A stretch of 64,000 nt of DNA from positions 82,439-146,438 of the forward strand of contig CALSRB010000007.1 in the NCBI GenBank assembly GCA_943788655.1. Reading direction: 5' to 3'. The notes beneath the pieces are model-generated. The model saw only the letters and a list, made by a program, of their open reading frames with translations, did not search any database and had not been told where the DNA came from. Numbering within the stretch: the first letter of the stretch is position 1; each line of letters opens with the position of its first letter. This document shows, piece after piece, positions 4,714 through 8,979 of the stretch. Both the position numbers and the translations under genes were made by a program. This stretch comes from Candidatus Poseidoniaceae archaeon. GTDB lineage: Archaea > Thermoplasmatota > Poseidoniia > Poseidoniales > Poseidoniaceae.

Positions 4714-5502
4714 TCATTCGAACGGATCGAGGTGGACAATTTGTTCGACATCGATGCGCTTGTAGCCTCGTTCTCGGGCTGCTTCAGCCGCTTTGCTCAA
4801 CATTGCCCGCATCCAACCGAGGGACATCAAGGTCTTCATTCGACCAATTGATTCGATGAATTGAACTGGATTTCCACCTAACTGGGCGTGCTTACGAATG
4901 TCTGATTCAAGTTGTTCTACCACCATATAATACGTTTCAAGAAGCTCTACCACAGCATCACGAGTCACTGGCATCTTCGCATGAGTTTTGGCGAGGGAAA
5001 GCAGGGATGACTCGGTCAACACACCTCCACCCTGGCTGATAACGAAATCTTCGGTTGGGATCGCTTCGACTGCTTGTTCAACATCGCCATCGTCATCGAG
5101 GCCCATGCCTTGGATGGCAATTTCAAGATGACGAGGTTTGATGGTTGCAACGCGGTCTTTTTCTGCGGCCGCTTCTGCGTGCTTAATCATCGCCGCCAGG
5201 TGACGTTCAATGTGTTCAATGCCAGCTTGGACGGCGGCTGAACCAACGGATTCAACGGAACCCAGCTGGTCGATCATGAGTTCCCGAGTTCGGTTGTAAT
5301 TCAGACGGGTTCGGTTCGCATCGTCAAGCGTTTTCCGGTCTGGGTCTTGTGCCAATGTTGCCTGCTCCATCTCTGGAACAAGGCGTTCGATTTCTTCACA
5401 TACCAACTCAACAAGCCGTTCTTTCACGGCTCCTGCAAGGCGCATTTCCGTGTAGTTTGATGCGACTGCACCGATGTGTCCCGAGGAATAGGGCTTGGCC
5501 AT
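4714..5502 (-). CDS. Multi-histone-fold protein (about three tandem folds)
   Basis: Repeated alpha1-L1-alpha2-L2-alpha3 patterns ending in RKTL, ATIKPRHLEIAI and GYKRIDVEQI. Confidence 0.7.
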   Translation of the reverse strand: MAKPYSSGHIGAVASNYTEMRLAGAVKERLVELVCEEIERLVPEMEQATLAQDPDRKTLDDANRTRLNYNRTRELMIDQLGSVESVGSAAVQAGIEHIERHLAAMIKHAEAAAEKDRVATIKPRHLEIAIQGMGLDDDGDVEQAVEAIPTEDFVISQGGGVLTESSLLSLAKTHAKMPVTRDAVVELLETYYMVVEQLESDIRKHAQLGGNPVQFIESIGRMKTLMSLGWMRAMLSKAAEAARERGYKRIDVEQIVHLDPFE

Positions 5503-5558: not shown

Positions 5559-5825
5559 TCATTCCGTCAGTCCATCTTCACGGCTCATTGCTTGGGAGAT
5601 TTCCCAAGCGTGGAGGCATTCATGACCGCCCAAAAAACCGCCCGCTTCACGACTGGGCCCGACGAATTCTGAACCACAGAATTGACAGAAGACCGCAACA
5701 ATTGGCTCATTGTAATACGTACCATTCGGCGTGCTGCGCTTTGGAATTCGCTTGCCTACATCTTCGTGAGTCCATCCTTCGAGTTTCTCACATACATCGC
5801 TGTCTACGTGTTCTTGTTCAGTCAT
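5559..5825 (-). CDS. Small protein with C2H2-type zinc finger
   Basis: CQFC-x17-HECLH; starts 2 nt after the M24 peptidase stop. Confidence 0.6.
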   Translation of the reverse strand: MTEQEHVDSDVCEKLEGWTHEDVGKRIPKRSTPNGTYYNEPIVAVFCQFCGSEFVGPSREAGGFLGGHECLHAWEISQAMSREDGLTE

Positions 5826-5827
5826 CT

Positions 5828-7105
5828 TCACCACTCCGTAATGGCGGGCCAAAGCCCATCTGCTGTGATGGGACGCATGCCGTCCTCATCTCGAATCCAT
5901 GTATCTTCTGTTCCGATGCTGCCTTCGGCATGAACCACCTTTGGCTCGATTGCCATGGTTGCTCCAATCGGCAGCGGGCGCTCAAATCCTTTGGCAACGA
6001 CGGGTGACTCGTCGAGTTGAAGGCCGACTGAGTGGCCAAGGAAACGGCTCTGATCGGGCGCCATGCCCATCAAGTGTGAAGCATGACCAAACTCATTTGC
6101 CAGTGCAAAGCCCTCATCCCAAGCTTCGCTGCATAAACCACCACGGTCAAGCACATCGACCACTGTATCCTTGACAGCAACCATGTCTTCGAGCCGCGAG
6201 ACCCACGCTGCATCTAATGAGCCTGCTACGAACATTCTCGTCATGTCGACGATGTAACCTCGATGGGCGTGAACAAGATCAACGAGAACTGGTTCGTTCG
6301 CTTTAATTCGTGTGAATCCTGAACCCATTCCGTTGAGGGGGTGGGCGCCTGTACCACCAACTGCCGAATCGAAAAATGATGGAATCCCACCCGCCCGACC
6401 TGCAACGATGACGCCACGGTCACATTGGAGCGGGAAGCGGCGCATATGAATGTGGCCGCCGAAGCCTTCTGAGCGACTCACCGCCTCTGCTGCTGCAACC
6501 AATTCGAGTTCGGTGATTCCTTCTCCACCGACGGCTTGGACCGCTTCGAACATACGCAGTTGGACATCTGCGGCGGCGTTCATCTGATCTTGTTCCCACG
6601 AAGATTTCACTTCACGTTGAGCGTGTACGATGCCTGTGACATCAGGGCAGGCACCAAGGGGTGAAAGCGCACTGACGAATCGATCTGAGTAGGTCTTCGG
6701 AACTTCTCCGAACTGAAGTCCAGGGGCTGCAGTAACCCCTCGCTGCTTCAAAACTTCTGAGAATTCCTTCATCCGTGGAAAAACCACAACTTCGTGCGGG
6801 CAATCTGAGCCGCCACCCTCGAACAAAGCTCGTTGGAGGGACCTGCGAACGAACAAGACTGGCCCGTTTCCTCCAGCCTCAGTGCTCCCACCCGCACCTT
6901 GTGCTGGAATGAACATTGAAGCGTTCTGACGACCGCCTGCAAAGTAATACAAGTCGACGGGGTGTTGGAGCAGTGCCCCAGCCACGCCGGCTGCTGAAAG
7001 CAACCGTCCGAGTTCAACTTGCCGTGCCGCTAACTCCGAGACTGGCACTCGCCAATCCTCACCATCGGGGCCGGTCAAATCCGCCACATCCCATCCGGTC
7101 ATCAA
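5828..7105 (-). CDS. Xaa-Pro aminopeptidase (M24 family)
   Basis: Creatinase-like N-domain DLYYFAG; metal ligands VDL..GYIVDMTR, GHSVGL..DE.P, AIEP, GTEDT. Confidence 0.92.
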   Translation of the reverse strand: MMTGWDVADLTGPDGEDWRVPVSELAARQVELGRLLSAAGVAGALLQHPVDLYYFAGGRQNASMFIPAQGAGGSTEAGGNGPVLFVRRSLQRALFEGGGSDCPHEVVVFPRMKEFSEVLKQRGVTAAPGLQFGEVPKTYSDRFVSALSPLGACPDVTGIVHAQREVKSSWEQDQMNAAADVQLRMFEAVQAVGGEGITELELVAAAEAVSRSEGFGGHIHMRRFPLQCDRGVIVAGRAGGIPSFFDSAVGGTGAHPLNGMGSGFTRIKANEPVLVDLVHAHRGYIVDMTRMFVAGSLDAAWVSRLEDMVAVKDTVVDVLDRGGLCSEAWDEGFALANEFGHASHLMGMAPDQSRFLGHSVGLQLDESPVVAKGFERPLPIGATMAIEPKVVHAEGSIGTEDTWIRDEDGMRPITADGLWPAITEW

Positions 7106-8022: not shown

Positions 8023-8979
8023 TCAAACCTGTACTTCGGGTGCAACCCATGCCTCGGTGGTATCGAGCCGTTGCTGTGCAATTTCGCAGTATGAATCTGA
8101 AAGATCAACGCCGACATAGGTTCGCCCAGTGGCTTTTGCTGCAACGCATGTTGTGCCCGAACCATTGAATGGATCGAGAACGACATCACCAACGAAACTG
8201 TACATTTCGATGCATCGCTTTGGAAGTTCAACAGGGAACGGAGCTGGGTGGTTGACTCGCGATGCACGCTCTGTCGCAAAGGACCAGATTGATTTCGTGT
8301 GTTTGATGAAATCGTCACGAGGGATGGTGTCGATGCGACCCTCAGCGCGTTCTTTCTTGTCCCGCTTGAGTTTGTAGTCACCCTTTGAGAACACCAGCAG
8401 GTATTCGTGGACGTCGCGCAGGCAAGGGTTGCTTGCGCTCTGGAATGAACCCCATGCGCAAGAAGAGCCTGCGCTTGCTGATTTGTCCCAAATGATTTCG
8501 CCTCGCATCAAGAAACCAATTTCAGCCATCATTACGTTGATGTGGCTCGAGAGAGGAATGTACGGCTTTCTTCCGAGATTGGCGACATTGACAACCATGC
8601 GTCCCCCGGGTGCAAGCACCCTGTAACATTCGGCAAACACACCGTGCAAGAGGTTGAGGTATTCGCCGAGCGAGAGATCTTCATCGTATTCCTTGCTGGC
8701 GTTGTAGGGCGGAGAAGTCACCACAAGGTGAACGCAATTGTCTGGCAAGTCAAGGTTTCTTGAATCACCTGAAATGATGCTGTTGGCCATGGTTGGTGGA
8801 AGGGGTTGTTCATCGCCAACCTCACGGCTTGAAACAAGGCCCTCGTTGACCCGACTGCCATAGTAGGTCGAAGCGTCGTGGCCTTCACGCCGAGAGACCC
8901 CGAACGAAGAGGTGCTGGTGCTGGCTCGGCGCCGTGCCCCCTCCAATGATGTGTCCCTTTCGGGTGCTTCGCGCGCCAT
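8023..8979 (-). CDS. Site-specific DNA methyltransferase, beta class (N4-C/N6-A), apparently orphan
   Basis: Motif IV VTSPPY precedes HPAPFP and motif I VLDPFNGSGTT. Confidence 0.92.
   Translation of the reverse strand: MAREAPERDTSLEGARRRASTSTSSFGVSRREGHDASTYYGSRVNEGLVSSREVGDEQPLPPTMANSIISGDSRNLDLPDNCVHLVVTSPPYNASKEYDEDLSLGEYLNLLHGVFAECYRVLAPGGRMVVNVANLGRKPYIPLSSHINVMMAEIGFLMRGEIIWDKSASAGSSCAWGSFQSASNPCLRDVHEYLLVFSKGDYKLKRDKKERAEGRIDTIPRDDFIKHTKSIWSFATERASRVNHPAPFPVELPKRCIEMYSFVGDVVLDPFNGSGTTCVAAKATGRTYVGVDLSDSYCEIAQQRLDTTEAWVAPEVQV

Follow-up and report, generated by a model that had tools for sequence, protein, structure and literature searches.

The subject of this analysis is a gene encoding an acidic protein of 262 amino acids built from histone folds, which is close to certain to be a member of the 'cluster 5 acidic quadruplets', a published group of histones of Poseidoniales. 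The gene lies at 4714..5502 on the minus strand of a window of 64,000 nucleotides from a Candidatus Poseidoniaceae archaeon (assembly GCA_943788655.1, contig CALSRB010000007.1, positions 82,439 to 146,438 of the forward strand), starts with ATG, and has its stop codon at 4714-4716. Our models point to four fold-derived units arranged in two paired lobes. Taken as a whole, we lean towards a two-lobe cluster 5 protein whose N-terminal lobe would bind DNA and which would have an accessory role in the nucleoid. Few archaea are as abundant in the surface ocean as the Poseidoniales, which are uncultured, and the cluster 5 gene is their only histone-type gene. Whether or not its product binds DNA bears on the origin of histone repeats and on chromatin in a lineage reliant on MC1.

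The open reading frame (ORF) is a conserved gene, and not a chance frame, because it has 348 homologous proteins (E≤0.001, among 3619 candidates of a word-indexed search) and 201 relatives in a scan of species-representative genomes. At least 120 of the homologues are listed with source names such as Poseidoniaceae, Poseidonia, and 'Euryarchaeota archaeon'; they are mostly 258-281 amino acids long, and several are annotated as 'histone H3/H4' by JGI. A full HMMER scan of representatives at 50% identity retrieved 81 proteins at E≤0.001. The best 80 of the 201 relative loci are mostly titled Poseidoniales, Poseidoniaceae, Poseidonia, or Thalassarchaeaceae, and the rest carry broader archaeal labels, except for one bin labelled as bacterial.

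Cluster 5 was defined in a survey that grouped the histones of Archaea according to their physical parameters (Histone diversity in the archaeal domain of life, Nat Commun 2026; PMC13260811), and what we say of this survey refers to the portion of its text available to us. The cluster contains 130 sequences with a median length of 262 amino acids and a median isoelectric point (pI) of 5.2; they have 'four predicted histone fold motifs', are always the sole histone gene of the genome, and are exclusive to Poseidoniales and one closely related genome (PMC13260811). Our protein has the same length, a pI of 5.15, and a net charge of -13, in line with its initial annotation as a fairly acidic single-chain protein. 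It carries four histone-fold units in one chain, which form two paired lobes in both of our monomer models, the fourth unit being a remnant. The genome from which it comes is 97.3% complete; its only PF00125 match at E≤0.001 is the ORF at 4714..5502, and it has no PF00808 match above the cut-off. The cluster representative ('single 5') is DUJJ01000204.1_9 (PMC13260811). The contig DUJJ01000204.1 (locus L037) has a copy that is 75% identical to our protein over residues 2-261 (E 3e-136), and from the contig name we infer that the two are the same.

The initial annotation had warned that multi-fold histones of Poseidoniia might already be catalogued. They are: the family was catalogued in 2026, nothing in the available text of that description sets the 262-residue copy apart from it (PMC13260811), and the window adds no new family. 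In our search of the literature linking histones with the names of this archaeal group, only this survey joined both; the group goes unmentioned in a survey of prokaryotic histones from 2024. To the published description of the cluster we add an internal duplication, a branch in a second class, the lack of a match in most sampled genomes of one family of the order (f3), and a conflict between predictions of chain pairing. These increments may help bench work on the protein.

The N-terminal doublet

We made two AlphaFold2 models of the monomer. Model 1 used 38 close sequences (mean pLDDT, or predicted local distance difference test, 70.9; predicted template modelling score, pTM, 0.46), and model 2 used an alignment of 36 more diverse sequences, called A2 (mean pLDDT 80.2, pTM 0.41); helix boundaries given below are those of model 2. 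In these models, residues 1-135, hereafter the N lobe, form a histone doublet in which fold 1 lacks alpha3 and fold 2 is complete. Fold 1 (residues 1-62; 5317..5502, minus strand) has alpha1 at 7-14, an L1 with the invariant R21, alpha2 at 24-52, and an L2 with 'DPDRKTL'. It had been described from the sequence as ending in QDPDRKTLDD (residues 52-61) without an alpha3, and both models bear this out, with residues 53-68 in coil. Within this coil, K57, T58, L59, D60, and D61 are invariant in the 38 sequences, and the equally invariant R66-L-N-Y-N-R-T-R73 leads into fold 2. The latter (residues 63-135; 5098..5316, minus strand) has alpha1 at 69-78, alpha2 at 88-115, an L2 with T120 and K122, and alpha3 at 123-132. 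Fold 2 is the only unit of the chain with the canonical succession alpha1-L1-alpha2-L2-alpha3.

Sequence comparison identifies fold 2 as a histone-fold homologue although the lone sequence fails the Pfam cut-offs, because other family members match PF00125 and PF00808 and because the family profile reaches the archaeal histone 8bdk_A at E 2e-7. The 262-residue protein scores 19.9 bits against PF00125 (residues 68-131; gathering cut-off 26.4) and 9.6 bits against PF00808 (gathering cut-off 21.4). At E≤0.01, PF00125 matches 36 of the 38 aligned members and PF00808 matches 13 of the 38. An NCBIfam scan of the protein gave only a spurious 12-bit row, and the Pfam scan gave no row for the DUF1931 model at E up to 10.

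Superposition with VIA is consistent with a doublet. The tool reports that Z scores of 8-10 are common for helical domains, and we put the weight on coverage and on the sequence evidence. Residues 64-139 superpose on single folds of every histone class; fold 2 aligns with HPhA (1ku5_B) over 66 of 66 residues (Z 8.6, root-mean-square deviation, rmsd, 1.4) and with 1jfi_B over 74 residues (Z 9.8, rmsd 1.8). Residues 2-141 superpose on several double folds made of a single chain: H2B-H2A chimeras (for example 7vcl_A; Z 10.3, rmsd 3.9, 114 residues aligned), HMk (1f1e; Z 9.2, rmsd 2.7, 109 residues aligned, 18% identity), a chain of the SAGA complex, the Melbournevirus doublets, and SOS. The N lobe is thus comparable to the single-chain doublets of Archaea, such as HMk of Methanopyrus kandleri and the acidic doublets of Halobacteria, which also pair two folds in an intramolecular handshake. 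It differs from them in that fold 1 lacks alpha3 and a second, truncated doublet follows after an acidic linker, and the likeness is structural.

The initial annotation had called fold 2 H2A-like, and this holds for the comparison with eukaryotes. Among solved structures, the first match of the A2 profile (positions ~70-136) is the archaeal variant 8bdk_A (E 2e-7), followed by chains of H2A or H2A.Z (E 3.4e-6 to 6e-4) and by the H2A-like NC2 alpha (1jfi_A; E 4.9e-5). None of the best 60 PDB matches of A2 is a chain of H2B, H3, or H4 alone. With the profile of close sequences, the best 60 PDB matches all contain H2A or H2A.Z (E 0.0013 to 0.22), and the best alignment spans from the segment ahead of alpha1 to the end of alpha3. 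In this region, which includes HAEAAAEKDRVATIKPRHLEIAIQ (residues 107-130), the H2A.Z stretch aligned with TIKPRHLEIAIQG is '...[13 protein letters not shown]'. H2A, H2A.Z, and NC2 alpha are therefore the best eukaryotic matches of fold 2, but the archaeal 8bdk_A outscores them, and the divergent members of the family lack the proline of the PRHL motif: 'TIKPRHL' is replaced in them by 'TIKARHL', 'TLKKRHL', or 'TIKGEHI'. In the alignment with 8bdk_A, 'drvkTik' from fold 2 stands opposite 'GRKTIK'. At the level of sequence, the resemblance to the L2-alpha3 region of H2A is real; it may be convergent and need not imply descent from, or to, H2A.

The entry 8bdk ('DNA-binding protein HmvA'), a code that appears once in PMC10516927, is, as far as can be told, that of MJ1647, a histone variant of Methanocaldococcus jannaschii. 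No other solved structure matches fold 2, or the C-terminal part of our protein, better by sequence. In the available text on MJ1647, it is described as a divergent histone in which R19 of the RT pair is substituted, with a single fold and a C-terminal tetramerisation module, and which bridges DNA (PMC10516927). Our protein differs from it in having several folds in the chain where MJ1647 has one and the tetramerisation module (PMC10516927).

The linker and the C lobe

The N lobe is followed by an acidic linker (residues 136-160; 5023..5097, minus strand) with a net charge of -8. It is predicted to be disordered: pLDDT falls below 50 at residues 138-160 in model 1 and, in model 2, at residues 139-159 only. 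Its alignment columns are gapped and poorly conserved, and both its length and its sequence vary. The region including the linker (residues 126-176) also matches 22 stretches of a protein of 5070 amino acids (P0160); the match most likely comes from an acidic repeat of low complexity rather than from kinship.

The rest of the chain, hereafter the C lobe (residues 161-262; 4717..5022, minus strand), is predicted with alpha1 at 164-174, L1, alpha2 at 181-207, a turn, a kinked helix at 212-226 and 229-244, an L2 with 'GYKRID', and alpha3 at 252-256. Mean pLDDT by blocks of residues 161-262 is 70-90 in one model and 76-94 in the other. Sequence and structure describe this lobe differently. Among solved structures, a profile of 14 diverse sequences of the C lobe (A4) matches 8bdk_A best (E 0.0011), and the match falls into two pieces: profile positions 6-40 align with residues 2-36 of 8bdk_A and positions 80-102 with residues 41-63. 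By sequence, the C lobe would thus be a single archaeal histone fold whose alpha2 is interrupted by some 40 residues, much as the initial annotation had it: a third fold after the acidic linker, with an insertion in alpha2 and ending in AAEAARERGYKRIDVEQI (residues 238-255). In both monomer models, on the other hand, the two halves of the lobe form a helical hairpin in which L1 meets L2, with bridge residues 179 and 250.

The structural comparisons of the C lobe lead to pseudodimers. VIA superposes it on 1wwi, from Thermus thermophilus, over 100 residues (Z 9.6, rmsd 2.4; Z 8.0 in a second run), on 7dlx_B (Z 8.7), on double folds (Z 7.7-8.0), and on the lid domains of the AAA+ proteins RuvBL and MCM (Z 8.2-8.7, rmsd ~2, ~70 residues aligned), of which the best is 9eq2_B (Z 8.7, rmsd 2.0, 71 residues aligned). 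Both 1wwi and the AAA+ lids likewise pack a pair of helix-strand-helix units in one chain, and the likeness is structural only: no Pfam match to DUF1931 or to a lid domain covers the C lobe.

Comparison of the protein with itself gives a simpler account of the lobe. When the two halves of the family alignment are compared with hhalign, positions 4-126 of the N-terminal half align with positions 1-95 of the C-terminal half (Prob 95.7, E 9.8e-9, 94 columns). The signal is clear for fold 1 against fold 3 (Prob 94, E 1.4e-7) and weak for fold 2 against fold 4 (Prob 32, E 4.8e-4, 26 columns). Two stretches of the N lobe have no counterpart in the C lobe: 'RKTLDDAN', and some 21 residues that in fold 2 span L1 and the first half of alpha2. 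Only a remnant is left of the fourth unit, its alpha1 running into the C-terminal half of alpha2. Because of the match between the halves, the C lobe is most simply read as a duplicate of the N-terminal doublet, shortened by the loss of its middle, that pairs with itself. The chain would then consist of four fold-derived units in two paired lobes, and the monomer models leave no fold unpaired. We prefer this 'quadruplet' to three folds with one to spare because the models pair the C lobe with itself and hhalign derives it from the N doublet. The initial annotation had counted three histone folds; three segments are indeed seen in the sequence, but structure and ancestry give four units, and its corollary that an odd number of folds needs a partner is not supported, since the C-terminal part pairs with itself in both monomer models.

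It could still be argued that the third fold is unpaired and is completed by a separate histone-fold partner or by a second chain. The match of the C lobe to one archaeal fold in two pieces fits this idea, and so do the AlphaFold3 models of cluster 5, whose pairing is intrachain for the N-terminal part and interchain for the C-terminal part, in the portion of the study available (PMC13260811). Yet the genome has no second histone-fold gene that could provide the partner, in both monomer models the pairing of L1 (179) with L2 (250) is internal to the lobe, some 100 residues of the lobe can be superposed on solved pseudodimers, hhalign derives it from a lobe of two folds, and the two-copy model described below has no confident interface in it. 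We regard an unpaired third fold as highly improbable.

The pTM values of 0.41-0.46 indicate no fixed packing between the two lobes. Searches with whole-chain structures are weak because the lobes have no fixed mutual orientation, and VIA was used by lobe instead. With the whole models, Foldseek gave no PDB match at E≤0.001 and none among viral models at this threshold, where the best match was a Marseillevirus histone-like protein (E 0.026).

Predicted pairing between chains and proposed DNA binding

A two-copy ESMFold2 model of the protein 'supports binding; it does not show it', with a score of 0.82 against 0.01 for the best of three controls. Of 30 proteins whose solved structure is a pair of one chain, 20 reach the mark for this score, against 1 of 23 whose solved structure is a single chain; the calibration is a rough one because the alignment was our own. 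The runs agree on at least 67% of the contacts, and the partner has a pLDDT of at least 67. All confident interface residues are within 1-130, with none in the C lobe. The error is lowest for residue pairs that link fold 1 of one copy with fold 2 of its partner (59-90, 42-76, 38-75, 23-121, and 30-102). The predicted contacts are those of the ordinary histone handshake, formed here between chains. The handshake is a textbook solved complex, so passing the mark may reflect likeness only.

One could take this model further and propose that two chains swap folds into a defined particle of eight folds that wraps DNA, like the pseudo-octamers made by the quadruplets of giant viruses. The two-copy score, far above those of the controls, speaks for this. 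The viral quadruplets, from Nucleocytoviricota, string H2B, H2A, H3, and H4 in series and protect ~148 bp in Escherichia coli (PMC11222145). They share with our protein the four fold-derived units per chain, the disordered linkers, the absence of other histones beside them, and predicted dimers (PMC11222145). They never occur with other histones and they dimerise (PMC11222145), and the gene in the window is likewise the sole histone gene of its genome. Interchain pairing is also found in the AlphaFold3 models, but there it involves the C-terminal part (PMC13260811). However, the same handshake is satisfied inside one chain in the monomer models, the two multimer predictions conflict on which half pairs between chains, and there is no fixed packing of the lobes. 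The handshake also being textbook, a pass may mean little more than resemblance. Moreover, the available text of the survey reports neither assemblies through four-helix bundles nor a nucleosome-like structure for the cluster (PMC13260811). Our protein further differs from the viral quadruplets in that its two lobes are duplicates of each other and its fourth unit is a remnant. We hold the fold-swapped particle to be unlikely. The fuller version, in which chains exchanging their N-terminal folds close a particle of eight units around DNA and fold 2 has a true evolutionary link to H2A, is more doubtful still. If true, it would mean that a single gene equips a planktonic archaeon, otherwise devoid of histones, with a defined unit that resembles a nucleosome.

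The two-lobe arrangement inside one chain leads to a more modest proposal on DNA binding. The net charge of the protein is divided into -4 for the N lobe (where fold 2 has +1), -8 for the linker, and -1 for the C lobe. The medians over 36 sequences are -11 in total, -1 for the N lobe, -7 for the linker, and -3 for the C lobe. Lysines or arginines kept in at least 80% of these sequences are found at 11 positions of the N lobe (3, 21, 27, 56, 57, 64, 66, 71, 73, 122, and 124) and at only two of the C lobe (172 and 232). Histones of the HMf type contact DNA at L1, at L2, and at the start of alpha1, and the conserved basic residues of the N lobe are located at these places. Fold 1 has retained R21 of L1 and R56-K57-T58 of L2; fold 2 has retained T120 and K122. 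The RT pair and the 'RKT' of L2 are not retained in every fold, and the C lobe keeps only K172 and R232. The N lobe would be the equivalent of one histone dimer and could bind a short stretch of DNA through its conserved basic residues of L1, L2, and alpha1. The C lobe is more likely to serve protein-protein contacts or capping because it has almost no conserved basic residues.

In the cell, the protein may act as an accessory nucleoid protein beside MC1. It is probably not the main DNA packager because MC1 (PF05854) is nearly universal in the order: it is present in 194 of 201 genomes, in all 61 of high quality, and in all 24 genera. The genome of the window encodes Alba and MC1, and HU was not found in it. 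We think an accessory DNA-binding protein slightly more probable than otherwise.

Several observations weigh against this proposal. The protein as a whole is acidic (-13), and in L1 of fold 2 it has a serine at the position where canonical histones have the arginine of the RT pair. The gene is dispensable because it has no match in 69 of the 99 sampled genomes of family f3, including some that are 91-97% complete. The three predictions disagree on which half would pair within and which between chains. The gene neighbourhood consists of housekeeping genes and provides no functional hint. The evidence for expression is limited to metatranscriptome contigs: in four runs from three studies, contigs cover parts of the gene, and they indicate presence in RNA libraries only, with no level, strand, or ends, and possible carry-over of DNA. 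(In the same four runs positions 6274-6975 have no contig cover, from which nothing is concluded.) Finally, beyond the absence of nucleosome-like structures and four-helix-bundle assemblies in its AlphaFold3 models, the survey suggests that cluster 5 'might not bind DNA', in the part of its text available (PMC13260811).

These points raise the possibility that the histone folds were co-opted for another job, as a protein-protein scaffold or a chaperone-like acidic protein that does not bind DNA in the cell. The low pI (5.15) and the charge of the linker (-8) are in its favour, and so are the two conserved basic positions of the C lobe and the resemblance of this lobe to the AAA+ lid 9eq2_B and to 1wwi, which we take to be a DUF1931 member. 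A scaffold or chaperone role of this kind is the one considered for TAFs and DUF1931 proteins, and the latter class reportedly has no residues for binding DNA. Packaging is available from MC1 and Alba, and many genera of the order lack a match to the gene. A lack of DNA binding is also what the survey suggests for the cluster, in the part available (PMC13260811). On the other side, the 11 conserved basic residues of the N lobe cluster in the loops and alpha1 of the histone fold, the L2 motifs 'TIK' and 'RKT' are retained across identities of 23-100%, and no conserved partner gene adjoins. Overall acidity is also compatible with DNA binding, and the survey notes basic ridges on acidic histones in its available text (PMC13260811). 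We see the loss of DNA binding as possible but doubtful, and we keep as our preferred account a doublet-based protein that would bind DNA with its N lobe.

Distribution and gene neighbourhood

We searched 201 genomes of the order, which are samples and not censuses, with the A2 profile, and found the gene in 130 of them: 97 out of 99 in family f1, both genomes of f2, and 30 out of 99 in f3. In six genera of f3 it was not found in any of the 58 genomes (0/3, 0/13, 0/4, 0/15, 0/9, and 0/14), several of which are 91-97% complete. This pattern suggests that the histone-fold gene was lost in streamlined lineages that keep MC1. The 58 genomes of these six genera are mostly of 1.3-1.6 Mb.

PF00808 scores above its cut-off in only 4 of the 201 genomes. 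In three, the match is inside the cluster 5 gene, and the fourth (G144) has one match inside this gene and a separate one. The latter (locus L084, C15:11936-12180) is of the canonical type (E 9.3e-16) and split over two frames; the genome is of the family of the window, 90% complete, and with 2% contamination. It may be a frameshifted histone singlet or contamination.

The family reaches a second class of the phylum, beyond the range of Poseidoniales and one genome given in the available description (PMC13260811). A profile of divergent members found it in five genomes of this class (G338, G323, G268, G344, and G273; loci L088-L092), with E from 1e-70 to 5e-103. These members are full-length, are 23-30% identical to our protein, and keep the two-lobe layout. 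They occur in all four sampled genomes of one order and in 5 of the 37 of the class, in genomes of 3.1-4.4 Mb whose only PF00808 matches are inside this same gene. In a protein search, the profile of this divergent subfamily retrieved only two proteins.

A putative remnant of the gene in one genome (G023; a 20-bit match with three stops) was rejected as noise, as 16 kb around it lack the neighbour genes of the window and all three frames are full of stops. The archaeal gene is also carried by two records with bacterial labels, a 'Rhodobiaceae bacterium' bin (L075), whose gene order is Poseidoniales-like, and a 'Crocinitomicaceae bacterium' (P0020). They look like misbinned contigs.

In the window, the gene is surrounded by genes for the large subunit of ExoVII, a membrane protein, an ORF of 112 amino acids, a peroxiredoxin, an ORF of 97 amino acids, an M24 peptidase, a DNA methylase, and PGK. 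The 112-residue ORF has no Pfam match, and its thioredoxin-like label comes from the sequence. The N6/N4 DNA methylase (8023-8979, minus strand; PF01555, E 5.3e-51) is three genes upstream of the histone gene. Among 89 loci, many show the same succession of PGK, DNA methylase, M24 peptidase, small ORF, histone gene, peroxiredoxin or thioredoxin-like gene, membrane protein, and ExoVII, with M24 in 73, the small ORF in 52, and the methylase close to the histone gene in 52. In one clade (L053-L058 and L060) the orientation of the histone gene is opposite to that seen elsewhere beside these conserved neighbours, and ~1.9 kb of other DNA separate it from the peroxiredoxin gene. We considered an operon or synteny as a clue to function and discarded it, given that the genomes are closely related, that the neighbours are housekeeping genes, and that this clade has the histone gene inverted. 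The ORF of 97 amino acids (5559-5852, minus strand) is found upstream of the histone gene, at a distance of 56 nt, and overlaps with the end of the gene for the M24 peptidase; it has no Pfam match, and its CQFCG...HECLH pattern looks like a small zinc-binding motif.

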